Positions 16,345-55,454 are shown, counted from the first letter of the stretch. The stretch is DNA of 64,000 bases from Bacteroidetes bacterium UBA6161 (GCA_002422315.1 DIUJ01000068.1:30882-94881), one strand, 5' to 3'. Numbers and translations: made by a program. The notes: a model not told the origin generated them from the sequence alone.

Positions 16345-16347
16345 ATC

Positions 16348-31328: not shown

Positions 31329-32219
31329 TCAAATATATATAGAATTCTTCGCTCTCTTCAAATACTTTATAAACTTATCCGAGCCTAAGACTTCTATTTC
31401 ATTCAAGAAGCCCATTACAAATCTTCCGGGGCCTTTGAAGCTATGCACAGGGGCTTTGAAAAGGTATTGGTTGGTATTGGGAATAGGCTTTATGTAGGGT
31501 AGGCTCATGGGGTATTCCTCTTTGAGTAAAAGGCTAGCCCTTAGGCTCATGTTCCATTCTATTTCTTGTGCTTCATTTTTGCCCTGGAAACCAAAAATAT
31601 CTGGTTTATAGTATTTGTGTTCAGGCTCAAAGGCAAAGTCTGAATTTAAAACTTGCACTTCCGAGATTCGTTCAATACTAAAAAGCTTGTTGCTAGCAGA
31701 AGCAATCTCGTATGCAGAAACTGTACTGTAGTTTTCGGTAAAGCACATGGGTTCCACCAAGCGGTCGGCAATGGTTTGGCTGCTTGCAGAATAATATCCT
31801 TTTAGCAAGACTTGCTTTTTTTCCTGTATTGCCAAAGATAGGCTTTCAACTATTTTAGCTAAGTGAGCATTGTAAACAGTTTGGACACCAAGTTCTACTT
31901 CGGAAGAAGATCTGATTTTGTGGTAGATACTATCCGTCAAAGGACTTGATTTACCTACTGTATGCAATAGCATGGTCAAATATTCTGTTTCCTGGGTCGT
32001 AAAAACAGGTTTGTTGTCATTCTCACCTGGAATGAAATATTTGCCATGCATATCTTTTTCTATTTTAATTCCCATTTCTTGTAGCAGGTCCATGTATCTG
32101 TAAACAGACCTTCCCGTGATACCAAGTAAAATAGCCAAGTTTTGATTGGATTTATGGGGCTCCGATTTCAGATGGTTTATGAGCTGAAAAAGGCGATAAA
32201 TTCGGTTTTGATTAAACAT
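31329..32219 (-). CDS. HTH + WYL-domain transcriptional regulator (YafY-like)
   Basis: N-terminal 'NRIYRLFQLINHLKSEPHKSNQNLAILLGITGRSVYRYMDLLQEMGIKI' is a YafY-type wHTH. The C-terminal two-thirds has WYL-like length and architecture. Start taken at the internal Met (MFNQ...). Confidence 0.55.
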   Translation of the reverse strand: MFNQNRIYRLFQLINHLKSEPHKSNQNLAILLGITGRSVYRYMDLLQEMGIKIEKDMHGKYFIPGENDNKPVFTTQETEYLTMLLHTVGKSSPLTDSIYHKIRSSSEVELGVQTVYNAHLAKIVESLSLAIQEKKQVLLKGYYSASSQTIADRLVEPMCFTENYSTVSAYEIASASNKLFSIERISEVQVLNSDFAFEPEHKYYKPDIFGFQGKNEAQEIEWNMSLRASLLLKEEYPMSLPYIKPIPNTNQYLFKAPVHSFKGPGRFVMGFLNEIEVLGSDKFIKYLKRAKNSIYI

Positions 32220-32394
32220 GTGGAAAAGTTTTGCGACAAATAAAGTCAAAATGAAGCAAATAGCCAAGTGTTTAACTCTATTTATCTCGAAATTAATGAT
32301 ATGGGTAATTGTTTTTTATTTATGTTTGAAGAAAGGAAATTTATTAATCATAAATGCCTATTTATAAGTTATAACATCTTAAAATTAAAACTCA

Positions 32395-32901
32395 ATGTAC
32401 CCAGTTAAATTAGGCTTCGAAGGCGCGAAAGAACGAATCAATAAATTATTAGAAAATAATCATTACGCTGAAAGTTTGGTAACTTCTGTTTTTACAGCGG
32501 AGAAAACAGTCCGAAGAACACTGCGCCAGCTAATTGTATCATCCGGTTTCAAGAGTACAATAGCAAACAAAATAATATCAAGGCTTTCAGGGATTTATCA
32601 ACTTGTTGAAGCATGGGAAATTTATGATCCTCAACATAGGAAATTAACGAAAATTGTAAAATCAAACGATATTGAGATTATAAAATTAGCCGCTCAAAAA
32701 AGAAACAAACTAATTCATGGAGAGCAAGTTTTTAAACTTGAGTTATGTAAAGAAGAGACATTAAAAGTTATTAGAGCTCTTGATAATATTAAGAATTGCT
32801 TTGACGAAGAATATGGATATAGTGGTTGGACAAATATATCTACCAGAAAAATAAGTATGCTTCATAAAGATCCAAAGATTAAGGAAACAATAAAAATATG
32901 A
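32395..32901 (+). CDS. hypothetical small protein with HEPN-like Rx4-6H motif
   Basis: 168 aa, predicted all-alpha, with 'AAQKRNKLIHGEQ' (R-x4-H). Divergent from the WYL regulator. Confidence 0.3.
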   Translation: MYPVKLGFEGAKERINKLLENNHYAESLVTSVFTAEKTVRRTLRQLIVSSGFKSTIANKIISRLSGIYQLVEAWEIYDPQHRKLTKIVKSNDIEIIKLAAQKRNKLIHGEQVFKLELCKEETLKVIRALDNIKNCFDEEYGYSGWTNISTRKISMLHKDPKIKETIKI

Positions 32902-33086: not shown

Positions 33087-34592
33087 TCACTCCATTTTCA
33101 AACTCCCACCGCCATTGAATCTCCCACTAGCTGTGGCCATTTTATTTTCTACGGTAATGATTACATCTACTTCGTGAGCCAGTTCATTTCCTCCACGGAA
33201 TTTACCGTCTTTGGTGGAGTGAAACACAAATACAAAACCGATGCGAGGGTATTTGTTTTTAAGTTTCACCATATCAGACAACTCCATACCGGCCCTGCTT
33301 ACACTGTCTATAAACACAAAATCATAGGCACTTAAATTGCTGGGTAATTTTTCCGCAAAATAAAGCTCTGGGTGGGTAGCATTTACCCTTTGTATTTTAT
33401 CTTTAAGCGTATAGCCATACCCCTCCTCAATAGCAGCGTATAAAACAGGTCCGTGCTTGCTTGCCAGTTCGTTTGCAAACTCCAACATGAGGGTGCTTTT
33501 GCCGCTTTTGGGTTGGCCAAATACCATGGCAGTAAACCCTACACTTGGATCGCCAATAAGTTCTCGGAACTTGCCTTTTAAGCCTATGGTTTCAAAATCC
33601 ATACGCATAAGTTCTTGGCTGCTCATCGTATCCTTACTTTTTTGGGGTCCTGGGCTTTCTTTTTTTTTTGAAGAACTACTGTAGGTGTGTGCACCCAACA
33701 GACCTTTGATTCCGTTTAATTCTCCTTGGCTAATAGCCGGAGTCGCTTTTTTCTCTCTAAGATAAACAGCCAAAGACTTAAAGGCAGCATTTAAACGGTC
33801 GGAATACGGGTCTGATTTGCTTATTTTACCAGACTTTACCATGCGTTCCATTGCATTTTTTAAGCGCAGGGCTTTGTCTTCCACACCCGGTTTGCCATGT
33901 ATAGAAAGGTAACGTTTAAGCAAAGCAATAGACTCGCGAATTCTTTCGGAAGAAGCTATTTCCTGGTAATGTTTTAAGTTCTTAGAATCAATCTTAAACT
34001 CAGCTGTATCTTCCATTTTATCCAGGGCACTAATAAGTTGATTTTGGATTTGTAAAATTTCTTTAGCGTAAGGAGATGTTTTTCGGATACGCTTTTCTAG
34101 CATGGCTTTCTGAAGAGAAGACAACAAACTTAGTACACTTTTTTTCGTTCTTACCTTTCCGTCCATAGCAGCATATCGTTTGATAAAAGTAATTTCAATT
34201 GGTATCATTTCAACCCTTTTAGAAGTATCTTCTGCCTTTTCTTTTTTGGGTTTAGCCACTCTTTTGGAAGCTACGTTTTTTTTTACAGCAGGCTTTGGAT
34301 CGCTTGTGCTTTTCGCCTTACTTACTTTTGCTTTGCTTGGAGCTTTGCGAGGCGTTTTGGCATTTGTATTGGGTTGGCTATCCGTCTTTGGTGGATTAGA
34401 CTTTAAGTAGGCATTTAGTTTTTCAATGTAGTTGTCAACAACTCTTTGAATGGTGTCGTTGCTATTATATGCTTGCTTGTTGTTGCTTAGGGCTTTCCTG
34501 GCCAAATCGTCTCCTTTTTTAAGCGCTTCTGGCAAAGAGGAGAAAGATATATTTTGTGTTTTTTCGGTATAGTTGTTTATGGTAATCATCAT
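33087..34592 (-). CDS. P-loop ATPase (RecA/DnaB-fold C-terminal domain) with Lys-rich disordered N-terminal half
   Basis: Walker A 'GQPKSGKSTLMLEF' and Walker B 'DFVFIDSVS'. N-terminal '...KAPSKAKVSKAKSTSDPKPAVKK...'. Confidence 0.5.
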   Translation of the reverse strand: MMITINNYTEKTQNISFSSLPEALKKGDDLARKALSNNKQAYNSNDTIQRVVDNYIEKLNAYLKSNPPKTDSQPNTNAKTPRKAPSKAKVSKAKSTSDPKPAVKKNVASKRVAKPKKEKAEDTSKRVEMIPIEITFIKRYAAMDGKVRTKKSVLSLLSSLQKAMLEKRIRKTSPYAKEILQIQNQLISALDKMEDTAEFKIDSKNLKHYQEIASSERIRESIALLKRYLSIHGKPGVEDKALRLKNAMERMVKSGKISKSDPYSDRLNAAFKSLAVYLREKKATPAISQGELNGIKGLLGAHTYSSSSKKKESPGPQKSKDTMSSQELMRMDFETIGLKGKFRELIGDPSVGFTAMVFGQPKSGKSTLMLEFANELASKHGPVLYAAIEEGYGYTLKDKIQRVNATHPELYFAEKLPSNLSAYDFVFIDSVSRAGMELSDMVKLKNKYPRIGFVFVFHSTKDGKFRGGNELAHEVDVIITVENKMATASGRFNGGGSLKME

Positions 34593-34601
34593 TGTAAAAA
34601 A

Positions 34602-37600
34602 TTAAAAGTCTAATAATTCTAGTTCTAGTTCTAAAGCTTCTGCTTCAAGAGTAAGTAAATCAAAGTCTGCCTCCTGCTCCTCGGATTCAAAATCTTCGGT
34701 ATCATCCACAGGGTCGCTTGGGGGGAGCTCCACTTTAAAGTCCAACAAATAGTTAAGTTTGGCAAATTCCTCTGCGCGTTGTTCCGCGCTTCTACCTTCC
34801 ACCTGAAGGGCTGATTTCTTTTTTTGGATTTCCTCACGTAGTTCTTCCCAGCGAGGAGAATTGTTGTCACCTTGGTAGCGTTCCCCTTGTTTTTTTAATG
34901 CCTCTAGTTCTTGGGTATAACTAGCAACAACTTGATCTAAATCAGAATCAATGGAAAAACCCTTGCTTTTGAGAACTGTTTTTTCTGTTTTTCTTACTTT
35001 AGAAACATATTCTTTGAGGTATTCTAAAATGTAGCGATTGGAGAAATACACCCCAAGAACCACATAGCTAGCATCTATCTTTCTGCCTAAAGCAATCAAA
35101 TCTTTATCCGATATTTCACTTGCCGCAAGAAGCGATTCGATTTCATTGTGAAGTTCTACTGCTTTTTTGTGGTTCTTTACCCTTTGCAGCTCTTCGGAAT
35201 CGGGTTCAATCATCCAATTGCTGTTTTTAAGCGATGCTAAAAAAGCACGTATGGCATCTATGGCTCTTTCTCTATAATTCTTATAGTAGCCTATATCGCG
35301 CTTAATTTCTTCAATAAGCCCAATAGCATAGCGAATGCGTTTGTATTGGCGGTTAAGTTCTTCTTTTTCCTGGTCAAAGAACATTCGTACCAACCTGTCA
35401 ATATCAGTAATTAATGCAAGTTTAATTTCTTGAGGGTCCAAGCTTTCTAAATCCAATACATTGCCCCTGTCGCCCCTAAACCAAATATCATTTATTCGAG
35501 AGGTTTTTTCTTCCAACTTTTGAAAGACAAACACATCCATACTATCTTGAATAAGTGGCATCACAACCCTCACATATTCAAATTGATTGCCTTGTCTCCA
35601 AATACGGCCTTCCAATTGACGAATATCCGTTGGGTTCCATTCTGGATAGCAGTTATAAATTACCGTTCCTCGTCTTTGAAGGTCTATGCCTTCGCGAATG
35701 GTAGCAGTTCCAATAATTACTTTTACCACTCCATCCAGGAAGGCTTCTTTTACGGTTTCTTTCCGGGTATCATTTATTTCAGAAGAAATAATTTCTACCT
35801 CATCCACCTTCGTTTTGGCGAAAAACACCCCTCGTTTAAAGCCTAGTTCCTCTTCTAAATATTGTTTAATTAAACTAAAAAACTGTTTGCCACGGTTCAT
35901 ATATATTACCTGCCCAGAAACATCTTCTCCTTGCTTTTGATGGTACTTTTTCACTGATTTTATACACTCCATTACATAGGCTATTTTAGGACTGTTTTCT
36001 ACAAACTCTTTATAGTTTTCAGGAGTGCCATTAAGTAAATAAGGAGACAGTGCATTGTCTAAACTATACGCTAATGCTCTAAATAAGTTCCCCATATCTA
36101 ATTTACCTTCAGTGGATTTTTTGGCCAGGCTTACAATGCGGTTTTGGTTTTCACGCTGCATGGGGGTCATATTGATATAGGTAAGTGCTTGTTTAGCCGT
36201 TGGCAGTCTTTGTTCTGGCTTGTTTTCAAGCAAATTATAAATCATGGGAAGGTTTATTTTTTTAGGTCTTTTCACACCTGCTTCTTCCCCTGTTTTATAA
36301 AGGATATGGTTATATATAAGTTTTTGAAGTACCCTTCGGTTGGTAAAGCTTTTGATAACCTCTTTTTCTACGATTTCTTCCTTATAATTTGCGGTCCATT
36401 CTACAGTAGGTAAAACAAACAAATCAAAGAAGGTGTCAATATTGTAAATACCGCTACCAATAAGGCTTTCGTATCCTACCAAAGAAAGCATAGAATAAAT
36501 TTCCAGGGGGGAATTAGAAAAGGGTGTAGCTGTGAGCAACATGGTATTACGGCCATACTTACGTTGAACATAGTTAAGCAAGAGAAAAGCTTTTTGTCCT
36601 GTTTCAGAAACAGCAGATTGGATATTGTAACGTTTTCCTTGGTCTTCATCGCTTTTAACAGTAGCAAATACATTTTTACACCTATGGGCCTCGTCTATCA
36701 CCACATAATCAAAGCCAAGTGCATCTACATCTGCTACGGTATTTTTTAAGCCAACACCAATCATTTCCCTAAACTTTTGGTATTTGATTTCTTTATCTCT
36801 TTGAGATTTTTCATTGCTTTGACCAAGAATATTTACCAGTTCAGTAAACAGCTCTTCTGAAACCTGTTTACCAAACCCCAGGCGTTTAAACCCTTCATAA
36901 GTTACCAAGGTGATACTCTTTTCAGGAACTGCCTTGTTGAGGTTTATTTTCTTAACGGTTTCTGTTCCTAAGTTATACCATTCATTGATACTTACATCGG
37001 TATAAGACAACACGCCAGGTACAAACTCTCCAGTTCTTTTGTCGGTATACCCAACGAGTTCACCCACCCATTTTTTATAGGTTGGTTTAGGAACCACAAT
37101 CAAAGGCCTACTACATTTGCCGGAATACATTGCATGGGCTAGGTTTGTTATAGCAGTCATAGTTTTACCCACGCCCACATCAAAGGCATTGATACCGGAA
37201 CCCATAGCTTCCATAAAAGCGATGCCCTCTCTTTGAATATCGGTAATTTGCAATACACCGCTTTTAAACCTTCGAGAGCACTCAAATCCTATAGGTACTT
37301 TGTGGTGTTTTATATCACTTTGGCCATTATACAATCTGTTCCAGGAATAATCCAATCGTTGTTGGTCCTGGAAGGTGAGTACCTCGTGCAAAAACTTAGA
37401 AAACAATTTTTCGCCTTCTTCTCTTGCATTGGCTTTAAGTTCGGCTTTTTCCTCCTTACTCAACCTATCATCGCGAAGGGGCCTATTTGCTATATAATAA
37501 TCTGCAATGTCTATGGCACTACTCTTGTTAAACTCCGTTTCCTGTAGCGTAAAAAGCCATTTCACATAGACCTCTTGTAAGGAAAACTTTCTTTCGCCAT

Positions 37601-38507
37601 CAAATCGAAGGTTGATACTGTCTTTGGAACTTTTACGTGAAATTTTACCATTCACTTTTTTAAACTCTTCTGCATTTTCTACATCCATATACTCCTCACG
37701 AACTAGCGTTATGAAAAAGGTATCTACACTTGCAGCAAAATCAGAAATAGCAGTAACAATGGGTCTTTCTTTTTCATCTGGATTGGTAACAGTCATTAGC
37801 AAAGGTTTTGCCTCTTGAATTTGTTTTGCATGTTGTTGGTACACTTCTGTACCCCAGGTATCTATAATGATACTTTTGTCTGATTCTAGCTGAAGCTCCC
37901 TGTCGTACATGTTGCCATAGGTAAATACAGGCAATGGTAGTAATTCCCCGCCATGATAATACAGTGCGCCTTCTTTCACAAGGCGATTAAGTTCCACCTG
38001 GTTGTTGGTACTCTCGCCAGGGATTAGTTTGCAATCCACAGTGTGCAAAAGAAACAAGCCCGCTCCGGCCCTTACTACATGGAATTTGGAACCTAAGTTT
38101 CCTTCTTGGTCTCTGATCCATTTGCCAATGACCTCGCCAGGATATGCCATTCTTATTTCCTGCATCCTGGTATCGTACAAGATAGTTTCCTTAACTACCT
38201 CCACATTTTTAGTTTTTTCTCCTGCTTTCAGGTAAAAATCCTCCCATCCCTTCATTGGTGTTCCCACACTACGCTTATACCAAACCCAAGCTTGTATTTC
38301 ACTCTTGGTGATGCCTTTATTGTAGCGTTCTACTACCTCTGCAAAAGGCATTACATTGTCAGACTTGGTATTTCCTAATCCAGAAAGTGTCGGCTTTTCG
38401 TCCAAGAGTTTTTTTAAATCCTCTTTTCTCCAGGCTAAACTAGCTGCCAAGTAAGGGTTTATTTTTCCGAGCGCTTGGGCGCTTTTAATTCCATTTAAAT
38501 AACTCAT
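34602..38507 (-). CDS. SNF2/DEAH-family helicase, 1301 aa, with acidic Leu/Glu-repeat C-terminus
   Basis: Motif I 'GVGKT', motif II 'DEAHRCKN', motif III 'LLTATP' and motif VI 'QLEGRIWRQG'. Tail '...EALELELELLDF'. Confidence 0.8.
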   Translation of the reverse strand: MSYLNGIKSAQALGKINPYLAASLAWRKEDLKKLLDEKPTLSGLGNTKSDNVMPFAEVVERYNKGITKSEIQAWVWYKRSVGTPMKGWEDFYLKAGEKTKNVEVVKETILYDTRMQEIRMAYPGEVIGKWIRDQEGNLGSKFHVVRAGAGLFLLHTVDCKLIPGESTNNQVELNRLVKEGALYYHGGELLPLPVFTYGNMYDRELQLESDKSIIIDTWGTEVYQQHAKQIQEAKPLLMTVTNPDEKERPIVTAISDFAASVDTFFITLVREEYMDVENAEEFKKVNGKISRKSSKDSINLRFDGERKFSLQEVYVKWLFTLQETEFNKSSAIDIADYYIANRPLRDDRLSKEEKAELKANAREEGEKLFSKFLHEVLTFQDQQRLDYSWNRLYNGQSDIKHHKVPIGFECSRRFKSGVLQITDIQREGIAFMEAMGSGINAFDVGVGKTMTAITNLAHAMYSGKCSRPLIVVPKPTYKKWVGELVGYTDKRTGEFVPGVLSYTDVSINEWYNLGTETVKKINLNKAVPEKSITLVTYEGFKRLGFGKQVSEELFTELVNILGQSNEKSQRDKEIKYQKFREMIGVGLKNTVADVDALGFDYVVIDEAHRCKNVFATVKSDEDQGKRYNIQSAVSETGQKAFLLLNYVQRKYGRNTMLLTATPFSNSPLEIYSMLSLVGYESLIGSGIYNIDTFFDLFVLPTVEWTANYKEEIVEKEVIKSFTNRRVLQKLIYNHILYKTGEEAGVKRPKKINLPMIYNLLENKPEQRLPTAKQALTYINMTPMQRENQNRIVSLAKKSTEGKLDMGNLFRALAYSLDNALSPYLLNGTPENYKEFVENSPKIAYVMECIKSVKKYHQKQGEDVSGQVIYMNRGKQFFSLIKQYLEEELGFKRGVFFAKTKVDEVEIISSEINDTRKETVKEAFLDGVVKVIIGTATIREGIDLQRRGTVIYNCYPEWNPTDIRQLEGRIWRQGNQFEYVRVVMPLIQDSMDVFVFQKLEEKTSRINDIWFRGDRGNVLDLESLDPQEIKLALITDIDRLVRMFFDQEKEELNRQYKRIRYAIGLIEEIKRDIGYYKNYRERAIDAIRAFLASLKNSNWMIEPDSEELQRVKNHKKAVELHNEIESLLAASEISDKDLIALGRKIDASYVVLGVYFSNRYILEYLKEYVSKVRKTEKTVLKSKGFSIDSDLDQVVASYTQELEALKKQGERYQGDNNSPRWEELREEIQKKKSALQVEGRSAEQRAEEFAKLNYLLDFKVELPPSDPVDDTEDFESEEQEADFDLLTLEAEALELELELLDF

Positions 38508-38953
38508 AATTCCAATAAATTTAATTCTGTTTCTAAAGCTAGTGCCTCTAGTTCATCTAGTCCTATGCTTGTTTTGCTACCCAAAGTAGTATCAATTGCT
38601 TTCTCTACATCTTTTCTATCCCCTTGTATGGTAACAGGAAAATCACGTGAGCTAGTGCCTACTTCTTTGCCGCATACCTTCCAAGGATAGAGTTGGAAAT
38701 ATGTATTAAAGGTCATCCATTCAGTAAAACTTAAAGATGCATTACTCAAGTCTTGTTCTTTTAAAATTCTTTTTTGTATTGCTTCCGCATCTGCATCTAC
38801 AGGAAAAACTCCATTTCTTAATTGAGAGATGTAGGTTTCCAATCTTTTTGCATCGTCCTTTTTAGCATCTTTCAAAAAAGAAGTTAAGCGGATTCGCAGG
38901 TCATGCAGCGCTTCAATTCGCGCGCGTAATTGTTGTGGATTTAAGCTTGCCAT
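38504..38953 (-). CDS. hypothetical protein with acidic Leu/Glu-repeat C-terminus
   Basis: 149 aa. Tail 'LDELEALALETELNLLEL' resembles the helicase tail. Overlaps neighbours (ATGA). Confidence 0.4.
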   Translation of the reverse strand: MASLNPQQLRARIEALHDLRIRLTSFLKDAKKDDAKRLETYISQLRNGVFPVDADAEAIQKRILKEQDLSNASLSFTEWMTFNTYFQLYPWKVCGKEVGTSSRDFPVTIQGDRKDVEKAIDTTLGSKTSIGLDELEALALETELNLLEL

Positions 38954-39699
38954 TCCATTTCAATTTGAGGGATAATTGCTTCCGGTATTCTGTTTTCACG
39001 AATTACCTTTTCCAAAATTCTTTCTTCCATTTTCAAAAACCCTTCTCTGCTATGTATCTGCTTGAATACATAAGGCGAATTGGCTTTAGTTACAGCTTTT
39101 AGTGCTTGTAATACACGCTGTCTCATTTTTATAACCAGGTCATTGTCTTCGTTTTCTAGCCCCGACAATGAAGCTTCTCCTTTGTCGGCAAATGAATAAT
39201 AGCCATCTGTGGTAACGATAATATGGTCTAAAATACTTATATCAAACATTGCAGCGGCATCTTTAAGTTTTTTAGTCATCCTTTTATCCGCATCACTAGG
39301 GTTTAGGTTTCCGCTAGGATGGTTGTGAGAGATAACCATTCCTTTGGCCAAGGTTTTAATGGCAACAGCCGTCACAAGCTGAATGTCAACCTGGGTAGAG
39401 TTGATTGTACCTTTAGAATGCTTGTAGTACCCTATAATTCTATTTCCTTGGTTCATGTACAATACCACAAAGTGTTCCTGGACTTCCAACCCTTCAAAGA
39501 TTACTTCTTTTACAAAGTCATAGGCATCTCTAGAGCTTTTAATTTGATTGAATTGAAGGCGTTCTTCCTTAAAAGTGATGTCAATTTCTCTTACATTAAA
39601 ATCGCGTTCTATCTCACTTAGATTGATTTCTAGGTCGGACATGTCTACGCTGTCCATGATTATTATTCCATTTTGTTGTGGTATTTTATAAGGTTTCAT
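38941..39699 (-). CDS. RadC-like JAB/MPN-domain protein
   Basis: 'HNHPSGNLNPSDADKRMTKKL' is the JAMM-type RadC/DUF2466 signature. N-terminal domain unknown. Confidence 0.65.
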   Translation of the reverse strand: MKPYKIPQQNGIIIMDSVDMSDLEINLSEIERDFNVREIDITFKEERLQFNQIKSSRDAYDFVKEVIFEGLEVQEHFVVLYMNQGNRIIGYYKHSKGTINSTQVDIQLVTAVAIKTLAKGMVISHNHPSGNLNPSDADKRMTKKLKDAAAMFDISILDHIIVTTDGYYSFADKGEASLSGLENEDNDLVIKMRQRVLQALKAVTKANSPYVFKQIHSREGFLKMEERILEKVIRENRIPEAIIPQIEMEWQA

Positions 39700-39700
39700 A

Positions 39701-40456
39701 TTACAGTTTTCTTAAAATAATTATATCCGTAGGCACTTGACTGAATTTAAAAACCGGAGGCAAGCGGTAAGCATCAACTAGCTCTGCAATTTGGCCAATG
39801 GTTTCTTTTTCTCCTTGATAAGTGATTCCACTGCGCATGATATTACTAGAAGTAAGATAAACCAATAAGCCACCTGGTTTGAGCATCTTTACTCCGTAGT
39901 ACATGAAAAAAAACTCCATTTGTTTCATTTGTGGGGTTCGGAAATAGCTTGAATATTGGTTTACATGTTTGCCGTAGGGAGGATTAGAAATTACCAATGA
40001 AAATGGGTAGTCTGAAAGCCAGGTTAAACCCTTTTTGTAGGGTTGGGTAAATCTATCGGGCTCCATAAAAGCGGTTTCGAAATATTGGTTGTACACCTTT
40101 GTTCCAGGGTATAAAATCTGCGCTATTCTAGCAGAGGTAGGGTTAATTTCAAATCCAGTAATTTCTTTCTTATTCGGTGCATCTTTAAACAATCTACCGG
40201 AAGCGCAAGCAGGTTCTAAAACAGGGCCTCCTTTGTAGCCATGGTATTTAGCCAATTCCCACATTTTAGCACAAAGCCAGTCTGGAGTGTAAAACTCATA
40301 TAAAACACCTTGCCCTTGTGCTCCTTTTGAACCATGACCTCCAGCGCCTTCATATTGGGCAATAAAGGTTTTATCCGCCAAAGAATAGGTCTCTTTTCGG
40401 GCATCCTTTTGTTTGATTAAGGCCTCAATCTTATGGTTCAGTTCAAGTTGATTCAA
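39701..40456 (-). CDS. N6-adenine DNA methyltransferase (gamma-class, NPPY)
   Basis: 'LEPACASGRLF' SAM motif followed by 'ISNPPYGKH'. Confidence 0.6.
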   Translation of the reverse strand: MNQLELNHKIEALIKQKDARKETYSLADKTFIAQYEGAGGHGSKGAQGQGVLYEFYTPDWLCAKMWELAKYHGYKGGPVLEPACASGRLFKDAPNKKEITGFEINPTSARIAQILYPGTKVYNQYFETAFMEPDRFTQPYKKGLTWLSDYPFSLVISNPPYGKHVNQYSSYFRTPQMKQMEFFFMYYGVKMLKPGGLLVYLTSSNIMRSGITYQGEKETIGQIAELVDAYRLPPVFKFSQVPTDIIILRKL

Positions 40457-41055
40457 GGTTGAATTTTAAGAAAAGTGGAATAGTGAATTTGTGCATTAGG
40501 ATTTTTAAGACTTACCCTTTGCATGAGTTTCCTTTTTGAGAAAATCCATAGCCAGGGCTTTTCTCTTGGCCCTTTAAAAACCACTTGAACCAAAGTATCT
40601 TTATAAGACAAATCCAGTTTTTGCTTATTTTCATGCAACACTCCATTAACCCTAAAGAAACCATCGTAATAGGAAAATACTTTATGCTGTTGGGTGTCTA
40701 AAACTATAGTATCGTGTAGAACAAGTTCTACTGTTTTGGCAGCTTCAAAAGAAGTGACTCCAAAGTTTTGCACTTTTGAGAGTTTTACCTTTAGGTTGCT
40801 AATTTCATTTTTAATTTCAGGCAAAAGGGTTGTAAGTTCTTGAGCACGTAGTGAAAGTACTGTGTTTTCAACCATTAAAAGTCCGTTTTCTGTTTCTAAT
40901 TGCTTGCTTTCTTGGGAAAGTAGGGAAGTAGTTTTAAGTAACTGTTTGTACTTGCTTTGTTCTTTTTTCCAAGAAAGAAATAATGCAACGGCCACTACTA
41001 AAAGCAGGGCGAAGGCAAACAAATTGGCTAGTTGAGTAGTGATTGATCGTATCAT
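40453..41055 (-). CDS. membrane-anchored coiled-coil protein
   Basis: One N-terminal TM helix followed by a coiled-coil region. Confidence 0.35.
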   Translation of the reverse strand: MIRSITTQLANLFAFALLLVVAVALFLSWKKEQSKYKQLLKTTSLLSQESKQLETENGLLMVENTVLSLRAQELTTLLPEIKNEISNLKVKLSKVQNFGVTSFEAAKTVELVLHDTIVLDTQQHKVFSYYDGFFRVNGVLHENKQKLDLSYKDTLVQVVFKGPREKPWLWIFSKRKLMQRVSLKNPNAQIHYSTFLKIQP

Positions 41056-41249
41056 TCTTTGGGGTCACTTGGTCTTTTGGTTTCGGCCCATATATAGGTG
41101 GATAAAATGGTCATAACCCCTGCTATGCAAGTAGTTGCTACTGCTTCCATATTTCTAAACATTGCCACATAAGTGGTAAGCACCAAGAAAATAGAAGCGC
41201 CTAATGTGAGCTTGAATCGAGTTCTTTTGTCCACTATATTCTTGTCCAT
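41052..41249 (-). CDS. small two-TM protein (holin-like)
   Basis: 65 aa, two hydrophobic helices and a charged C-terminus. Sits in a lysis/structural neighbourhood. Confidence 0.3.
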   Translation of the reverse strand: MDKNIVDKRTRFKLTLGASIFLVLTTYVAMFRNMEAVATTCIAGVMTILSTYIWAETKRPSDPKE

Positions 41250-41485
41250 TGTCCTTGAAATGTTTCAATGATTAATTGTCCATTTTCAATTAAAAGCCTT
41301 TGGTTTCCAAAATCATCTAAGATTTCAGGGTTTTGCACCCAGTAGATATAGCCATCTGCAATAACGATATGCCATTGCGACCCCAAGAAAGCCTGGGGAG
41401 CAGCAAATCGCTTTTCCCCAGACACTACTTGAGTAGAGACAGTATCCATTGCATCTTCTATTTGCTTAGCTTTTAATCTGTCCAT
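41234..41485 (-). CDS. hypothetical protein
   Basis: Intact ORF packed tightly in the operon. Confidence 0.3.
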   Translation of the reverse strand: MDRLKAKQIEDAMDTVSTQVVSGEKRFAAPQAFLGSQWHIVIADGYIYWVQNPEILDDFGNQRLLIENGQLIIETFQGQWTRI

Positions 41486-41496
41486 GTCTTATTTTT

Positions 41497-42438
41497 TTAG
41501 TTCCAAGCATATACCACAGTTATGGTATCGGAAGCTTCTGTTTCGTAAGGTACGGTATAGGTTAGTTGGTTGCTACCGGGTGTAAATACCACTGTTTTTA
41601 CTGCAATTCCATTAAAGAATACCAAGGGCACAAAACCTGCTGCAAGGGTATTGGCAACGGTTACAGGAGCAGGAATGTTAGCGGCTGCTGTAATCCCAGT
41701 AATGAACTCTCTTTCTTGGGTAAAAGCGTCCTCCTTGGTATTTGCCATAGCCAAAGCATCGTCTGCGGTGCTTTGTGCCGTTGCTGCATCTGCAACTGCG
41801 GTATTTGCTGTGGACTGAGCTGCTGCCGCTGCGGTATTGGCTGTATTGGCAGTGTTTTGGGCATTGGCTGCTGCGGTTCCTGCGGCATTAGCATTGCTTA
41901 GCGCTGTATTTGCAGTACTTGTAGTGCTTGCCAGTTCACTTTCCATGTTGTCCAGATTTACTGCCTGGGTAACAGTTACATGTCCTAGCTTTGTTTTTTC
42001 AGCATCTGTGTAAGCGTTGGTATCGGCATTACTTTCGTAGGATGTTTTAATTGCAGTTGCAGAAATAGCATTGGTAAAAATGTCTTCATCTGCAATTTTT
42101 ACAAAAGTTGATGTACTACCTACACCATCTGTAATTGCGGTAACAATATACAATGCCCATTTACCGTCTCCATCGTTGGTCACAAATACCCTGTCGGATA
42201 CTTTTAAACCGCTAAGGGCGTTTCTTTCGGCAATGGTATCTACACTGTGTGCATTGTCGGCACCTGCAACCAAAGATTGTACTTCAGATTTGGAATATAC
42301 ATCCAAGTTTGTTCGTGCGGTGGAAGGGGTAACGTCCGATAGGTTGTTGGACTTTTTTACTACTTCGCTGTCAAGGGCTCTAGCTGCTAAATCTGCAACC
42401 AGGCCTTGTACCTGTTTCTGTTTGATAAATTCACTCAT
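41497..42438 (-). CDS. fibre/receptor-binding-like protein with Ala/Asn/Thr repeats
   Basis: Repetitive 'TANTA...NANAAGTAAANAQNTANTANTAAAAAQSTANTA' stretch typical of phage fibre shafts, followed by a beta-rich C-terminus. Confidence 0.45.
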   Translation of the reverse strand: MSEFIKQKQVQGLVADLAARALDSEVVKKSNNLSDVTPSTARTNLDVYSKSEVQSLVAGADNAHSVDTIAERNALSGLKVSDRVFVTNDGDGKWALYIVTAITDGVGSTSTFVKIADEDIFTNAISATAIKTSYESNADTNAYTDAEKTKLGHVTVTQAVNLDNMESELASTTSTANTALSNANAAGTAAANAQNTANTANTAAAAAQSTANTAVADAATAQSTADDALAMANTKEDAFTQEREFITGITAAANIPAPVTVANTLAAGFVPLVFFNGIAVKTVVFTPGSNQLTYTVPYETEASDTITVVYAWN

Positions 42439-42468
42439 TTTTTATTTTTATTTAAGTTTTAGGGTTGT

Positions 42469-42867
42469 TTAGGTTATGATTATTGGGTAGCGTACTACCA
42501 GTTTGTCGCTTGTTTCTAAAGCAAAGTTGCCATGCCAGTATATTCTATCTGCTTCAATATGGTAGTCTGCTTGCACGCCATGGGTGTAGAGGATATTGTT
42601 TACTGTGAGAAATACAGATTCTTTATCTTCCACGGTGTCGGGCATATAGAATACGGTATCACCATCAAATCGAATGTCAAGTGTTCTTGAAATCCAATCC
42701 ATAATAAAAATGCCACCACCTGAAATTTCTTGACAAGTAGAAATGCGAAATACCTCCCCTTGGATGATTATTTCATCATTTATCTTATCGCCAATAAGGC
42801 CAAGAATTTCTCTTGCAGTAAAGGTTTTTGCGTCTCCTGTACTTACTTTTCTTAATATAAATGGCAT
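42469..42867 (-). CDS. hypothetical protein
   Basis: Intact 132-aa ORF. Confidence 0.3.
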   Translation of the reverse strand: MPFILRKVSTGDAKTFTAREILGLIGDKINDEIIIQGEVFRISTCQEISGGGIFIMDWISRTLDIRFDGDTVFYMPDTVEDKESVFLTVNNILYTHGVQADYHIEADRIYWHGNFALETSDKLVVRYPIIIT

Positions 42868-42968
42868 TTCTTACTTTGTTTTTTTACGCTTCTTTCCTCT
42901 AATGATTAACCAGGTAATTAAACCAGCTGCCAGGAGAGGACCTCCTGAAAAGCCGGGATCGGGTAGGA

Positions 42969-43433
42969 TTAAGTCAAGCCCTTTTTTTTTACAATAGCGG
43001 CAATGCTATTAAAGGTTGATATAATCCCTTTTCTATAAGCTTCGCGGCTATCTCCATTTGCTTCGCTGATGTAAGGACTGTAAGCTATAGCCTGTGCGTA
43101 TGCTATGGCATCCTTGTTTACAGCGTGTGCAGTCTTATACTTGCTAGAGATAAGTCGCGCGAAGTCATAGAAACTGTCTTGTTCGGTTTTGTAAATCCGA
43201 AACTTTAAGGCGTATTGGTTTTGACCAACCGAGAAGCTGCCATCCCAAAACTCATTGGGCGAACCTGCTGCGGTAATTCCAAAAAAATTCTTGCGAACCC
43301 TGGCACCATAACTACTGCCCCATGCAGATTCAAATGCTGCTTGGGCCAATATGATTTCAGGGGTCATGCCAAATCGGGTTCCTGCTTTTTTGGCTATTGG
43401 GTAATAGGTGGTGGTAAATGTTTCTTTATCCAT
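42969..43433 (-). CDS. peptidoglycan hydrolase, FlgJ-type glucosaminidase domain (lysin)
   Basis: 'GMTPEIILAQAAFESAWGSS...FFGI' matches the mannosyl-glycoprotein endo-beta-N-acetylglucosaminidase family. Confidence 0.7.
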   Translation of the reverse strand: MDKETFTTTYYPIAKKAGTRFGMTPEIILAQAAFESAWGSSYGARVRKNFFGITAAGSPNEFWDGSFSVGQNQYALKFRIYKTEQDSFYDFARLISSKYKTAHAVNKDAIAYAQAIAYSPYISEANGDSREAYRKGIISTFNSIAAIVKKKGLT

Positions 43434-43437
43434 GTTC

Positions 43438-44490
43438 TTAACTCTTTATTATGTGTTTTGTGTTTACCCATCGGTCTATCCCTTCTAAAGTTCTTACCAG
43501 GGTGTATTCAATACCTTTTCCGCTTAAACTCATGACCGGGTAGCCAAGTAAAATATTGGGTTCTACATAAGTTATAGGCTTAAATTGTGCATCTAATATT
43601 GGGGTGTTTTGAATAGTAATAATTCGTGAACCCGGTGCCGATAACCAACCAAGCGAAGTGATGGGTAGTAAGTATTTGGTGGCTCCTTTGGTAGTAGGGT
43701 ATTTGGCCTCCATCGCGGAAACCGTACTAAATTGTTCTGTATAGTTAGCGGAAGCACTTATCCAAAGGATCTTTGTTTGGCCAATTTGATTGGCATAGGT
43801 ACTAGGCATGCCTCCTGTGGGAGATACTTTATAGGCTATTTCAATAAACTTTACATTGTTTTTGCCGTCGTAGTGTTGTTTTCCTGTAGCATATCCTACA
43901 AACTCTCCGGCTCTTGCTGTTCTAAAAATGTTTTTGTTACCAATAAATTCATACCATGCATCCTGGTAGCTTGCATCGGGGGAGGTGCGAATAAATACAT
44001 TTTGTTTTGCTACAATTAGTCTTTGTGCCTGTGTATAAGCGCCACTTGGAACAGTGCCTGAACCACCGGAGCTTGTATTGCTTTGTTGGTTGATTCTATT
44101 GTTTGCTACTGTTTGCAAAAAATTGTTAAAGTCTTTGCTGCCTAGTTCGGATTGTAAATCAGAAAGCAATTCAGAGCGATACAAGTTGCGATAAGCAGAG
44201 GATACCCCTTCTAAATTATAGATTTGGGTAGCAATTTGTTCAATTGCATTCTCATTTGTACCATCGGCCCACATCATCCAGGAAACACCACTTGGGTTCA
44301 TGGCCGAACGCAAGCCCATGGCCTGTCTTACCTCGGCAGATTGGTCGGCTAGGTTCGCAGTTTTACGTTCCCTATACTCTTGGAGCACACGCTTGCCAAC
44401 CCTATACCCAATATAGAGTCCACCGGCAATCACCAAGCCACGAATTACTTGTTGTTGCATATTGGAGGATATGAATTCGCCTTTACTCAT
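43438..44490 (-). CDS. hypothetical structural protein
   Basis: 350 aa, N-terminal TM helix, no motif. Confidence 0.35.
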   Translation of the reverse strand: MSKGEFISSNMQQQVIRGLVIAGGLYIGYRVGKRVLQEYRERKTANLADQSAEVRQAMGLRSAMNPSGVSWMMWADGTNENAIEQIATQIYNLEGVSSAYRNLYRSELLSDLQSELGSKDFNNFLQTVANNRINQQSNTSSGGSGTVPSGAYTQAQRLIVAKQNVFIRTSPDASYQDAWYEFIGNKNIFRTARAGEFVGYATGKQHYDGKNNVKFIEIAYKVSPTGGMPSTYANQIGQTKILWISASANYTEQFSTVSAMEAKYPTTKGATKYLLPITSLGWLSAPGSRIITIQNTPILDAQFKPITYVEPNILLGYPVMSLSGKGIEYTLVRTLEGIDRWVNTKHIIKS

Positions 44491-44656
44491 GTCAATAATA
44501 TTCTAATACGCATTTGCACCGTTTTGTCTTTCAGCTTTTTGGATATTTGCTGCCATTCTTTGGCACTAAAAGCACCACTCATTTCGCTCATAGATTGTGC
44601 GATGCTCGCAGCATCTATCTCGTTTTTTGCTTGTATCTGAATCTCTTTTTTTATAC

Positions 44657-45454
44657 TCATGGTTGTTTTTTTTGTGCATGTAATTGTCCTAGTAAGCTGC
44701 CAATCAAGTCGGGATTGTTGTTCAACTCAATAAATACCAAGTAGAGGTGTCCCAGTTGGGTGTCATCTAGTCCTCTCATAAATTCTGTTACCAGGTCTAT
44801 GATAGTTTCTCTTTGGTCTTTTTCTGAGTTTTCATTTTCATGGCTTGGTGCAGAATGGTCTTGCAATCCTGCAAGCATTCCAAGAGTTCCTCCCAGAGCT
44901 GTTTTACTCAACATTTTGGCAAGTCCTGGTAGGGCAAGGCCTATAATGTTGGAATAATACTCCAAGTTCTTTTTAGCATCTACCACATTTTCTAATTCGC
45001 CTAGCTGTTGCCTTAGCGAATCGTTTTCTTGTTCCAGTTGGTCGCGCATTGCCCTAAGCTCTTCCAATTCGTTGTTGCGCATGATTTCTTCAAGCTTGGT
45101 GTTTAGCATTCGGTTTACTTCTGCCTCACCTAGCCCTTGGAATTCTGTTTCTTTGGCAAGTTTAATTTCTTGTTCCGGCTCCAGGTTAAAAGTTTTTGTC
45201 CATAAGAGTTCTTCATTTTCGCCTCTTAACTCCACACGGATTTTATCCGGTTGTTCACTTTCTACATACGTGAGAAGTAAGCGTGAAAAATTTTCAGATG
45301 CAGCTCTTTCAAAACTGTTTACTTTTTTTCCGCGTTTGCTAAAAACGGTACTACAATAGATGGTATCATATCCTTGTAAGTTTTGCGCTTTAATTGCTTT
45401 TTTACAGGCAGAAGTAATGTTGTACAGTTTGTTTTTTAATGGGTCTCTACTCAT
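44657..45454 (-). CDS. coiled-coil protein (scaffold/assembly-like)
   Basis: Strongly helical, Glu/Leu-rich heptads. Confidence 0.35.
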   Translation of the reverse strand: MSRDPLKNKLYNITSACKKAIKAQNLQGYDTIYCSTVFSKRGKKVNSFERAASENFSRLLLTYVESEQPDKIRVELRGENEELLWTKTFNLEPEQEIKLAKETEFQGLGEAEVNRMLNTKLEEIMRNNELEELRAMRDQLEQENDSLRQQLGELENVVDAKKNLEYYSNIIGLALPGLAKMLSKTALGGTLGMLAGLQDHSAPSHENENSEKDQRETIIDLVTEFMRGLDDTQLGHLYLVFIELNNNPDLIGSLLGQLHAQKKQP

Positions 45455-45783
45455 ATTCTTGGTATTGCACGTATAAATTCTATTTGAGGTATGGCACCAG
45501 GAGAAGGAAGTTTAATACTCATTTGGCCTCCGAATTCTTGGATTTTGGTTATGGTTTTACTGTCCCAACTAGCATCTACTTGAAGCACAGAAGTTTCGCT
45601 TGCTATTACCGTTCCTTGCGGGAGGGTATGGGTTAGCAAGTAATAAAAGGCACGGTCCGCATCAGTGTACAGCTTTACAGTTCCGGGAGGTACCAGCAGC
45701 GTATAGATGTCCATGTAGTAGTCGTCCACTTTTCGGGTGGCCAACAGTCTTTGGATATACGCTATGGACTCGATTGAAATCAT
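45451..45783 (-). CDS. hypothetical protein
   Basis: ATGA-coupled to neighbours. Confidence 0.3.
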   Translation of the reverse strand: MISIESIAYIQRLLATRKVDDYYMDIYTLLVPPGTVKLYTDADRAFYYLLTHTLPQGTVIASETSVLQVDASWDSKTITKIQEFGGQMSIKLPSPGAIPQIEFIRAIPRI

Positions 45784-46190
45784 ACTGTATGGAGATGAAA
45801 TGTGAACCTAACCTTGTATGGTTGAAATACTTCCGGTGAATGAATATCCTGTTCGCCTAAGTCTCTGTAGTAGCCAGTGACCAATCTGTTTTCCTTAATC
45901 GGAACTTGCAAGGGTAACATGCCTGGTCTAAATTGGGTCTGATCTGAAAATACCTCTTGTTTTGTAAATGGTACTATGAAGTTGACAGGGTGAATCTTTT
46001 TGCCTTCAAATTCTAAAGAGTATTCACCAAATACAGGAATTACAGTTTTGTTTGTTGGAATAATGCCTACAATCATGGCCTGCACTCCAAAACATTCTGA
46101 AACATCTCCCGGTAAACTAAAGTCTATGGGAACCGCTTGCTCATTGCGGTAAACCTGTATGGTTTTTGTCAATCTTCTTATTCTACTCAT
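45780..46190 (-). CDS. hypothetical protein
   Basis: ATGA-coupled to neighbours. Confidence 0.3.
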   Translation of the reverse strand: MSRIRRLTKTIQVYRNEQAVPIDFSLPGDVSECFGVQAMIVGIIPTNKTVIPVFGEYSLEFEGKKIHPVNFIVPFTKQEVFSDQTQFRPGMLPLQVPIKENRLVTGYYRDLGEQDIHSPEVFQPYKVRFTFHLHTV

Positions 46191-46567
46191 TTTAAATTTT
46201 CATTTACTAACCAAAGAAAAACCTTGGCTTCATAAGGGAAGCCTTGGTCTGTTATTCCTGCATCTCGGTAGCGGCCTTCAAAAGCATTTCCTGCGGCTTC
46301 AATGTATTCTTCAAACAAGAAAAACTTCTCATTAGGGGCAACACCTTGCCCACAAGTAATAAGCCGCACATCGTGGTCTTCTTCCAAAATGTCAATGCCT
46401 CCCACTTTTAAACTTAGCGTAGATCCATATTCAAGCAAAGGATTGGGTAAAGCCACGAAAATGCCACGGATACGCTTGTATGCTTTGTCCGTTGCTCCGG
46501 TAAAGCGTACAGAAACTCCTGGGGTGGGAACTCCTATGCGAATAAGTTGAAATTTATGGTTTTTCAT
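46187..46567 (-). CDS. hypothetical protein
   Basis: ATGA-coupled to neighbours. Confidence 0.3.
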   Translation of the reverse strand: MKNHKFQLIRIGVPTPGVSVRFTGATDKAYKRIRGIFVALPNPLLEYGSTLSLKVGGIDILEEDHDVRLITCGQGVAPNEKFFLFEEYIEAAGNAFEGRYRDAGITDQGFPYEAKVFLWLVNENLK

Positions 46568-46578
46568 GGCTGATTACC

Positions 46579-47283
46579 TTAGGCTTTGATGATAATTGTA
46601 CCACGCATTATGGCTTTAACAAAGGTTCTTGCTGGAGCATTTGCTCCCCATTCCAAATTGAACTCAATGGTTTGTTGGTCTTTGATTAGCTTGGGGTTGT
46701 CTAATTCATATTGACCCACAGGTACATTTTGTCCGCTTGTGTTAAACAATTCACAAGAAGCATTTTGCAACAAGGTGGTGCCGTTTGCAATGAATTCAAA
46801 TTCGCCATTTCTTAGGTAGTCTGGCAAAACGGTAAAATTCACATCAAAAACTGTTTCGTCCTGTCCTGCGGTTCCTGCAAGTAGGGTAAGGGCATTTAAC
46901 AAGAAGTAGTTGCCTTTTTCTAATTTCGCAGAGGAAATATTAGATACTCCAACCACTTTGTTGTCGTCGTCTTTAAGCAGCTTCTGAACCTTACTTCCTG
47001 ATATGTCTTTTACTACATAGTAGGCTGCATCTACAGCTTGTAAGGTTTGCCTTGCCAAGCCTTCTTGGATTTCTTTGGGCAACATGTGCAAGCGCTTTTC
47101 TAATTCTCCACGGGAACCGCGACTTGCTGCGGAACTACGTGTTTTTGCAAACTGCCTAATGCTTCGTGCAAAGGTCTGTTTGGCCGAAGGGCTAGCTGCA
47201 TCCATGGCTGCTACCAATTCGGACTCTGCAACTGCACCTAATAAGGTGAATTCGCTTTGGGTAATTTCTCCTAATGACATCAT
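46579..47283 (-). CDS. hypothetical protein (candidate capsid component)
   Basis: 234 aa with a beta-rich C-terminal half. Placement only. Confidence 0.3.
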   Translation of the reverse strand: MMSLGEITQSEFTLLGAVAESELVAAMDAASPSAKQTFARSIRQFAKTRSSAASRGSRGELEKRLHMLPKEIQEGLARQTLQAVDAAYYVVKDISGSKVQKLLKDDDNKVVGVSNISSAKLEKGNYFLLNALTLLAGTAGQDETVFDVNFTVLPDYLRNGEFEFIANGTTLLQNASCELFNTSGQNVPVGQYELDNPKLIKDQQTIEFNLEWGANAPARTFVKAIMRGTIIIKA

Positions 47284-47306
47284 AATGTTATTCTTTGGGT
47301 TTTGGG

Positions 47307-47810
47307 TTAAATAATTTCAAAATCTGCTTCTACAGCATTGCCAGTGTTGTTATTGTTAGAGGAAATAGACTCCTGGTAGGGTGTGTAATTTCCTGCACTT
47401 AATTGTGGGAGGTCGGGATTGTACCTTTTAGGGTTCAATCTTGCAAGGTCTTGATATACGCTCAATGGACGAGCAAATGAGCCTATATTACCAAGTCCGG
47501 AAATACCTGCTAAAAGGTCTTTTTTCAATACTACTTTTACAGTACTTACTACACCGCTTGCGCCTACTCCGGCTGCTACAAGTTTCAGGTTGGGGTCTTT
47601 GAGCTTCATTGCTCCAATTACTCCTGCTCCTAGTTGAACAGCAGGTTTAATAAGCTTTTTGACCTGGAAGCCAGGCGCGTTATCGTCTACTTTTAACATG
47701 GAGTCCAAGGCTTTTCCGCCCATGGAGCCCAGGACCAATCCTCCACTGATCATTGCCAGTGATTTTAGCTCGCCCATCATGGCGTTGCTGTTTCTTTTTT
47801 TTGTTCTCAT
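47307..47810 (-). CDS. hypothetical protein
   Basis: 167 aa, Gly/Ala-rich hydrophobic stretch. Confidence 0.3.
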   Translation of the reverse strand: MRTKKRNSNAMMGELKSLAMISGGLVLGSMGGKALDSMLKVDDNAPGFQVKKLIKPAVQLGAGVIGAMKLKDPNLKLVAAGVGASGVVSTVKVVLKKDLLAGISGLGNIGSFARPLSVYQDLARLNPKRYNPDLPQLSAGNYTPYQESISSNNNNTGNAVEADFEII

Positions 47811-47816
47811 GGGATT

Positions 47817-55131: not shown

Positions 55132-55454
55132 AAAAATTTAGTTTGTGTCTAGGTGTTTTTTGTCGTTAACCAAAAAGGGTAACGATTATTTACACTTTTG
55201 ACGGGTTGTCGTCCTCACTTCGCGATGCAAAGGTAAAAGTTAACAGTTACCTTTTGCTTTGCATAATGTTGCATATCAAGGCATTAAGTTGGAACCCTAA
55301 AAAATCGTTACCTCCGTTACCCCCAAAAAAAAGGGTAACGATTTGAATAATTTAAAGTGCCAAAACATGCATTTTTCTGCCAACCTTAGAAAACAAAAAA
55401 CCCTGTAAATGCCATGATTTACAGGGTTTTGCCAAGAACGTTCCTCTTGACATG

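Follow-up and report, generated by a model that had tools for sequence, protein, structure and literature searches.

Organization of the gene block

The 64,000-nucleotide stretch of Bacteroidetes bacterium UBA6161 analysed here (GCA_002422315.1, DIUJ01000068.1:30882-94881; referred to as the window) carries at 33087-40456 a block of genes that lies at one end of an integrated, apparently virus-like element and includes homologues of both enzymatic parts of DarB, the anti-restriction protein of phage P1. The block is filled by five minus-strand open reading frames (ORFs), which are tightly packed with overlaps of 4 and 13 nt and gaps of 1 and 9 nt and are transcribed in the order methyltransferase (MTase), RadC, DUF8306, SNF2 and ATPase (Table 1). 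A first-pass annotation of the same DNA had described a co-directional block of four genes at this position, encoding an adenine MTase, a RadC/JAB protein, an SNF2 helicase and a RecA-fold ATPase with a Lys-rich tail. Our ORF calling confirmed the extent of the block and its common orientation, which is wholly on the minus strand, and the four protein assignments were borne out by Pfam matches together with intact catalytic motifs. However, the DUF8306 gene between RadC and SNF2 had been missed, and the Lys-rich stretch of the ATPase is not a tail but an N-proximal linker (amino acids (aa) 76-125), which follows an N-terminal domain and precedes a C-terminal RecA-fold domain (aa ~323-495).

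Table 1. Position and assignment of the five genes of the block and of associated features of the element
Feature	Position	Strand	Description
LPD36/N6-adenine MTase	39701-40456	-	251 aa; Pfam N6_Mtase/Eco57I; first half of accessory cassette
RadC/JAB	38941-39699	-	252 aa; Pfam RadC PF04002, 129.7 bits (cut-off 22.1); near-core gene of element
DUF8306	38504-38953	-	149 aa; PF26972 in homologues; obligate companion of SNF2 gene
SNF2 ATPase/translocase	34602-38507	-	1301 aa; Pfam SNF2-rel_dom + Helicase_C; second half of MTase-helicase dyad
RecA-fold ATPase	33087-34592	-	501 aa; Pfam AAA_24/AAA_25; core NTPase of element
Shared C-terminal peptide, consensus LELEALALELELELL[DE][FL]	34602-34646 on SNF2; 38507-38557 on DUF8306	-	
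Upstream part of co-directional array	40453-50405	-	particle/lysis genes; order conserved in ~60 loci
Tyrosine integrase and tRNA-Ser(tga)	53896-55131 and 55454-55539	-	integration target, other end of element

Homology of the MTase and SNF2 proteins to DarB-type proteins

The MTase belongs to the gamma-class N6-adenine type with LPD36-like N-terminal helices, and its motifs GAGG37, YTP56 and NPPY158 are intact, thus displaying the TP...NPP(Y/F) arrangement that is typical of DarB. The GxG[GAS] motif of LPD36 is found ahead of the MTase in the sequence QYEGAGGHG, which contains GAGG37 and aligns to QYEGSGGQS of gp15 of Leptospira phage LE1, while no target-recognition domain was recognised by Pfam within the 251 residues. 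In BLASTP comparisons residues 3-250 aligned with residues 494-737 of LE1 gp15 (1e-26), and residues 52-250 with residues 88-274 of P7 DarB (3e-18). Likewise, the SNF2 protein possesses intact GVGKT445, DEAH605 and QLEGRIWRQG964 motifs, with GVGKT, DEAH and motif VI being invariant across 11 SNF2 homologues, and BLASTP aligned its residues 186-1098 with residues 903-1823 of LE1 gp15 (4e-84), and its residues 362-742 and 917-1111 with residues 778-1189 (4e-20) and 1461-1648 (1e-9) of DarB, respectively; P1 and P7 darB were also matched by tblastn. Both proteins found the same families in the PHROG database, namely phrog_1685 (143 bits for the MTase and 268 bits for SNF2), phrog_11801 and, more weakly, the DarB-like antirestriction family phrog_10089 (72 and 85 bits, respectively). 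The families phrog_1685 and phrog_11801 represent fused MTase-helicases of ~2270 columns. Since the MTase and the helicase are colinear with the fused LE1 gp15 and DarB, and since every domain type of the block is among those catalogued for polyvalent proteins by Iyer et al. (2017), the DarB-class homology is real. Domain searches and the comparison with P1 DarB therefore upheld the DarB-like content proposed in the first-pass annotation with respect to homology and colinearity with P1/P7 DarB, but not with respect to the single-polypeptide architecture.

The separation of the two enzymes into different genes has parallels among the closest relatives of the MTase. When the MTase was searched against 1.84 billion representatives, 5191 relatives were obtained, and in the best 150 of these 5191 the MTase module mostly constituted the very C-terminus of proteins of variable length, ending where the MTase of the window ends. 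The long proteins among these 150 carry the polyvalent domains LPD3 and DUF6908, and one runs on into SNF2. As most of the best 150 relatives end at the MTase, a split at exactly this point is common.

MTase, DUF8306 and SNF2 are inherited as one accessory cassette

In about 80 genome loci from many Bacteroidota families, which were sampled with the helicase as anchor, the gene order was ...DUF6549-MTase-RadC-DUF8306-SNF2-ATPase, optionally followed by a WYL regulator, and was always located at the end of the gene array; MTase and SNF2 matches occurred together in 67 of 83 such loci. Because a sample obtained in this way is biased toward helicase carriers, the analysis was re-anchored on a 234-aa capsid-candidate protein encoded further upstream in the array, which provided 44 loci with enough downstream sequence. 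Nine of these displayed the order DUF6549-RadC-ATPase, lacking MTase, DUF8306 and SNF2 while all other genes were present, and in these cassette-less loci RadC and ATPase overlap by 4 nt. All nine fall within the window's own clade, where they occupy at least two sub-branches beside cassette-bearing relatives. Upon comparison of L098 with L096, which are 81% identical over 10 kb, the similarity stops at the end of DUF6549. The joint absence of MTase, DUF8306 and SNF2 indicates that these genes represent one accessory cassette. Moreover, the two segments flanking RadC are present or absent together, linking the MTase functionally with DUF8306-SNF2 and showing that the element can do without the trio. 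The optional occurrence of the cassette in close relatives speaks against an essential role in replication and fits a role in anti-defence.

RadC contains the sequences HNHPSG125 and SDAD135 and thereby the HxH...S..D metal-binding signature of JAB proteins. In contrast to the trio it is retained in relatives without the cassette, and its position varies, being before the MTase in L074 and L078 and after SNF2 in L056, while L055 and L064 have RadC matches on both sides of SNF2; among the helicase-anchored loci it was undetected in L058, L066, L079 and L082. RadC is a frequent partner of the cassette but separable from it, and its predicted function is nucleic-acid processing. Fusions among the genes were also observed and include RadC-SNF2 (P0080), DUF8306-SNF2 (P0014-P0017), a 1985-aa protein of L003 and P0438.

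Two further variants were found among the related loci. A 251-aa C5 cytosine MTase (PF00145) is encoded between RadC and DUF8306 in L090 (17856-18611), L125 and L149, and is predicted to provide these cassettes with a second DNA modification activity. The plasmid pPP10 of Persicobacter psychrovividus (L086; NZ_AP025302.1, 1-16000) harbours particle genes that are a diverged version of those of the element; here a Strawberry-notch SF2 helicase (AAA_34 + Helicase_C_4, 1285 aa) occupies the position of SNF2 and the ATPase is split into proteins of 309 aa and 174 aa. pPP10 is circular, has a size of 53 kb and encodes Rep and ParAB of its own, and its version of the particle genes represents either an episomal relative of the element or an insertion into a plasmid.

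DUF8306 and a C-terminal peptide shared with SNF2

The name DUF8306 derives from precomputed Pfam annotation of homologues (PF26972); the 149-aa protein itself had no match in direct Pfam, PHROG, NCBIfam or PADLOC searches and no similarity to LE1 gp15. Its AF2 model (pLDDT 73) is mainly helical and found no fold match in the PDB, and a literature search for DUF6549 or DUF8306 retrieved no papers. The protein terminates in the acidic, Leu-rich peptide LDELEALALETELNLLEL, which has its counterpart in the C-terminal peptide of SNF2, LEAEALELELELLDF, the common consensus being LELEALALELELELL(D/E)(F/L). A composition filter that selects acidic, hydrophobic-rich C-termini in the last 16 residues flagged 56 of 76 SNF2 and 32 of 93 DUF8306 ORFs, and the SNF2 and DUF8306 tails listed carry the LELEALALELELELL consensus. 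Elsewhere the filter flagged 11 of 106 homologues of a 167-aa membrane protein, which have a different tail (...EEDLAYIEII), and 2 of 3652 unassigned ORFs, one of them resembling a DUF8306 homologue. The tag shared by SNF2 and DUF8306 suggests a common docking site or a mutual pairing of the two proteins. The 167-aa Gly-rich membrane protein (47307-47810, minus strand) has a conserved acidic/hydrophobic C-terminus of its own, ...EADFEII in the window and ...EEDLAYIEII or ...ELEFMEII in relatives, and this is a further terminal peptide that is conserved in the element.

The ATPase as a core component outside the cassette

The ATPase contains an intact Walker A motif at residue 359 and an intact Walker B motif at residue 425, and the closest solved chains are those of RadA/Sms (5lkm, over residues 342-483, and 8rxc). 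Its identification as a RadA orthologue was rejected, since TIGR00416 scored 30 bits against a cut-off of 403 and matched in the core only. The architecture of RadA/Sms with its Zn-finger, KNRFG motif and Lon-like domain is not realized in this protein, which ends soon after the core and leaves no room for a Lon-like domain. [quoted passage not shown] The annotation of gp40 is that of a virion structural protein, and PMC4124505 cites it as the predicted packaging ATPase of SSIP-1. In agreement with a gp40-type protein, the ATPase combines homology in the Walker A/B core with its status as the only NTPase of the element, being the sole canonical Walker-A protein, and it is kept in cassette-less relatives. 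A weak match to the Sak4-like PHROG 124 was also obtained, and homologues occur in the early/replication regions of tailed Bacteroidota phages, for example beside MuA/MuB in Winogradskyella phage Peternella. Judged by these similarities, the ATPase most likely has a role in packaging/translocation or in replication, the early-region homologues in tailed phages making replication or recombination conceivable. Whichever role applies, the ATPase is a core gene outside the cassette and is not to be counted in an anti-restriction module. The proposal of the first-pass annotation that the whole block forms one module was consequently not supported, as the ATPase, and in nearly all cases RadC as well, belongs to the core gene set.

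The carrier element and its surroundings

The span of the element was taken as 31329-55539, and the related loci compared here are L001, L004-L083 and L090-L171. From this comparison we infer a virus-like element of ~22-24 kb that resides at tRNA-Ser and whose gene order is conserved over many Bacteroidota families; the T9SS sorting domains encoded by neighbouring genes identify the host of the present copy as a member of the Bacteroidota. Cultivable carriers of related elements include Croceimicrobium hydrocarbonivorans (L001) and Flavobacterium myungsuense (L014). The element is integrated, as had been noted before: its tyrosine integrase adjoins tRNA-Ser(tga), and among 20 related loci scanned 14 show this arrangement too. 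A ~17-kb co-directional array extends from 50405 to 33087 on the minus strand and has the gene block at its 3' end. Upstream of the block it encodes small membrane proteins, a 612-aa transglutaminase-like protein, the 234-aa capsid candidate, proteins of 126, 136 and 110 aa, a glucosaminidase, a fibre-like protein and DUF6549, homologues of which are found in Bacteroides siphophages. The 234-aa protein is abundant in metagenomes and length-invariant (strictly 233-234 aa in relatives), and in its model a helical N-terminal part is followed by a beta-sandwich at the C-terminus, for which matches to jelly-roll/capsid folds were only weak. In domain searches of the element and its relatives, genes for a terminase, a portal, an HK97 capsid or conjugation were not found, nor was a replication initiator recognisable. 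As conjugation genes are absent, the leading-region logic by which the block had been likened to cargo of conjugative elements is inapplicable. A relationship of the particle genes to those of SSIP-1 was rejected after hhalign comparison of eight families with the SSIP-1 proteins. Based on its lysis genes, fibre, small membrane proteins and single NTPase, a tailless, membrane-containing virus is a reasonable guess for the carrier.

The far end of the element is less sharply defined than the tRNA end. Exact k-mers and local alignments between the tRNA/integrase region and 27-33 kb gave no attachment (att) repeat above shuffled controls, and by synteny the distal boundary is either the stop codon of the ATPase gene (33087) or the WYL gene (31329). 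Two exact copies of AAGGGTAACGATT (55175-55187 and 55331-55343), for which 0.07 are expected by chance, lie between the integrase start and tRNA-Ser and are candidate arm-type sites of the integrase. A promoter/terminator scan of the array returned fewer sites than shuffled sequences; promoters of Bacteroidota are not of the sigma-70 type. The HTH_11 + WYL regulator (31329-32267, minus strand) 3' of the ATPase is also present in at least 10 related loci, with an HTH protein in pPP10, and its recurrence after the ATPase indicates that it is probably the element's own regulator. A 168-aa ORF between the two genes (32395-32901, plus strand) has no homologue in any related locus.

Additional genes are located between the array and the integrase end. 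On the opposite strand (50647-52708, plus) are genes for an NA37 nucleoid-associated-like protein of 361 aa and a RelA_SpoT small alarmone synthetase-like protein of 327 aa, the latter matching the PADLOC candidate PDC-S33 (4e-11). This slot is filled by other genes in L090 and L091, so that the pair is probably a defence or toxin moron. DUF4248 is also encoded in this region, and an orphan MTase of the phage Dam family (53382-53885, minus strand; PF05869, PADLOC oMTase) adjoins the integrase. As none of the ~170 related loci contains a homologue of this orphan Dam MTase, it represents cargo specific to this copy. The Type I restriction-modification (R-M) island reported in the first-pass annotation is real and consists of HsdM (3313-4878), HsdS (4868-5989) and HsdR (10318-13530), with genes for an AAA_13 ATPase (5989-8202), a 289-aa protein and an AAA_2 ATPase (9119-10318) inserted between hsdS and hsdR. 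Together with a Toprim + AAA_25 primase-helicase-like protein (722-2827) and, after the R-M genes, a pair formed by a subtilase S8 (13909-16344) and an AAA ATPase (16348-17373), these genes make up a separate island (722-17373) that looks like a defence island. With regard to a protective role of the cassette against Type I R-M, the presence of this system in the window is only circumstantial.

Possible function of the cassette

The homology to DarB-type proteins and the inheritance of the three genes as one dispensable unit led us to consider MTase, DUF8306 and SNF2 as an accessory, unfused cassette of the DarB/polyvalent type, which would probably be produced alongside the particle proteins and work on the DNA of the element itself as this enters a cell, a reading to which we assign about an even chance. 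The location of the cassette at the 3' end of the particle/lysis array indicates that it is probably made late. MTase, DUF8306 and SNF2 might then be packed into the particle or become attached to the DNA, for which the shared C-terminal peptide is a possible means. Once inside a new cell, the SNF2 motor would translocate along the element's own DNA and would carry or activate the MTase, whose lack of a target-recognition domain would permit broad, processive adenine methylation; alternatively, the motor would displace restriction complexes. Either event would precede cutting by Type I or other R-M systems of the host and could thus protect the incoming DNA from restriction.

Several observations weigh against such a function. 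With a median identity of 67%, SNF2 shows the highest conservation among the proteins of the element, which is unusual for cargo in an arms race and could reflect a housekeeping role where the gene is present. No DarA-, Hdf-, DdrA-, DdrB- or Ulx-like partner was recognised among the element's proteins by Pfam, PHROG and NCBIfam, and the late timing is deduced from gene order alone. The virus status of the element is likewise deduced, given that neither a terminase nor a portal nor a recognised capsid family was found, and IMG/VR contained no relatives apart from one distant fused homologue (L003) when queried with the helicase, a helicase alignment and an alignment of the capsid candidate.

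The conservation of SNF2 would also be in line with the whole block being a replication/recombination module, in which SNF2 would act as replicative or fork-remodelling motor, the ATPase as a Sak4/RadA-like recombinase or helicase and RadC as processing nuclease, with the MTase serving to mark the DNA of the progeny. Neither the element nor its relatives possess any other recognisable replication gene, and the early-region homologues of the ATPase and its weak Sak4-like match point in the same direction. However, the trio cannot be essential for replication, since the nine close relatives without it are otherwise complete. Moreover, the block is placed behind the lysis genes, where the particle operon ends, away from the integrase/regulatory end, pPP10 encodes Rep and ParAB of its own in addition to the related module, and the best homologues are proteins of the polyvalent/DarB type and not replication helicases. 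We therefore regard a replication module as improbable.

A similarly low probability is given to the cassette being a provirus-borne defence system, either an R-M-, DISARM/BREX- or Type III-like pair, that excludes rival phages to the benefit of the lysogen. An adenine MTase combined with an SF2/SNF2 helicase is indeed shared with Type I R-M, with DISARM (DrmD/DrmMI), BREX (BrxHII/PglX) and Type III (Mod/Res) systems, and variable presence among relatives would fit defence cargo equally well as anti-defence. Weak PADLOC/NCBIfam matches to DrmD, BrxHII and a PLD-helicase were also obtained, but the defence models matched the generic Helicase_C lobe of SNF2 only, the PADLOC matches being confined to residues ~900-1000, and the scores were far under the cut-offs (42 bits versus 610 for DrmD and 67 versus 1100 for the PLD anti-phage model), while much stronger matches were found to polyvalent proteins of virion modules. 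No nuclease, PLD, DUF1998, PglZ or other effector or partner genes were found, and DISARM, BREX and Type III identity was rejected on the basis of these scores together with the absence of DrmA/B/C, PglZ/BrxC and the Res nuclease. Furthermore, the cassette genes overlap or nearly abut within the late array, with no sizeable intergenic gap, whereas the evident cargo, NA37 and RelA_SpoT, is on the opposite strand at a separate locus.

Least probable appears a take-over or remodelling device, whose SNF2 motor would strip nucleoid proteins or, like RapA, stalled RNA polymerase from the incoming or induced genome and whose methylation would serve as a self-mark for the timing of transcription or for packaging: SNF2 enzymes are established to move on duplex DNA and to displace proteins (discussed in PMC5512222), a weak RapA match was obtained and the MTase has no recognisable target-recognition domain, but the RapA similarity (19 bits) is restricted to the P-loop region, DarB as the only family member with genetic data has an anti-restriction phenotype (PMC12707154), and the gene position weakens this explanation further.

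MTase-helicases of the DarB type rank with the most frequent effectors predicted for the entry phase of phages and conjugative elements, and genetic data exist for P1 DarB only. In the element described here the module is split into separate, small and tractable genes, DUF8306 as a new obligate partner and the common terminal peptide hint at how its components come together or reach their target, and the close natural variants with and without the cassette constitute a built-in control for anti-restriction. The carrier is abundant in environmental Bacteroidota, unseen by viral databases and without the hallmarks of tailed phages, and may therefore represent an unclassified virus group. That it is a new temperate lineage of tailless jelly-roll viruses with an internal membrane, which packages a DarB-like pilot complex of MTase, DUF8306, SNF2 and perhaps RadC via the LELEALALELELELL tag, is a more far-reaching notion that we put forward as rather doubtful. 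In that case the natural variants with and without the cassette would provide a system for dissecting the protection of incoming DNA by DarB-type enzymes.

Comparison with known systems

Iyer et al. (2017, PMC5512222) describe the dyad of an LPD36-MTase and SWI2/SNF2, with DarB as archetype, and note that its two parts may share one polypeptide or be encoded by genes that are conserved neighbours. RadC and, for Bacteroidetes, Sms/RadA are also on their list of polyvalent-protein domains, for which they predict a function during the entry of DNA. The linkage found here corresponds to this description in that the MTase is tied to SWI2/SNF2 downstream of particle/lysis genes. In contrast to the giant polypeptides, the domains reside on separate genes, though fused relatives exist. 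In P1/P7 DarB (2255 aa) a TP...NPPY MTase is followed by a SWI2/SNF2 motor, both being homologous and colinear to the proteins described here, and the gene is likewise placed among virion-morphogenesis/late genes, with proA and proB for head processing as the neighbours of P7 darB. DarB is packaged into the virion head, its loading depending on DarA/Hdf/DdrA. As a component of the virion it shields DNA in cis against Type I R-M and BREX (PMC12707154). The cassette differs from DarB by having separate ORFs with RadC and DUF8306 between them instead of one ~2200-aa polypeptide, by an identity of 24-27% over parts only, and by the absence of the long C-terminal region of DarB. Furthermore, its carrier is, as far as visible, not a tailed phage.

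The best sequence match is LE1 gp15, in which MTase and helicase are colinear with those of the cassette, including the N-terminal region of the helicase, and whose gene is located between the portal and major-head genes. However, LE1 gp15 is a single polypeptide of 1971 aa with an N-terminal extension of 490 aa, and has neither DUF8306 nor the shared C-terminal peptide.

SSIP-1, a tailless, membrane-containing phage with two vertical single-beta-barrel capsid proteins (PMC4124505, PMC4958249), resembles the element in that gp40 is homologous to the C-terminal domain of the ATPase and in that its host is Bacteroidota-related. It differs by its genome size of 43.8 kb and by structural proteins that are not matched by any of the element's particle-gene families. 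Three genes downstream of gp40, SSIP-1 encodes gp43, a 2319-aa MTase+ParB protein annotated as virion structural, and giant MTase proteins can thus be virion components in a tailless phage. Homology of gp43 to the MTase or SNF2 of the element was rejected. In summary, the DarB-type module as such is already known and the unfused cassette represents a further member, while the uncharacterised carrier is the more novel part of this system.

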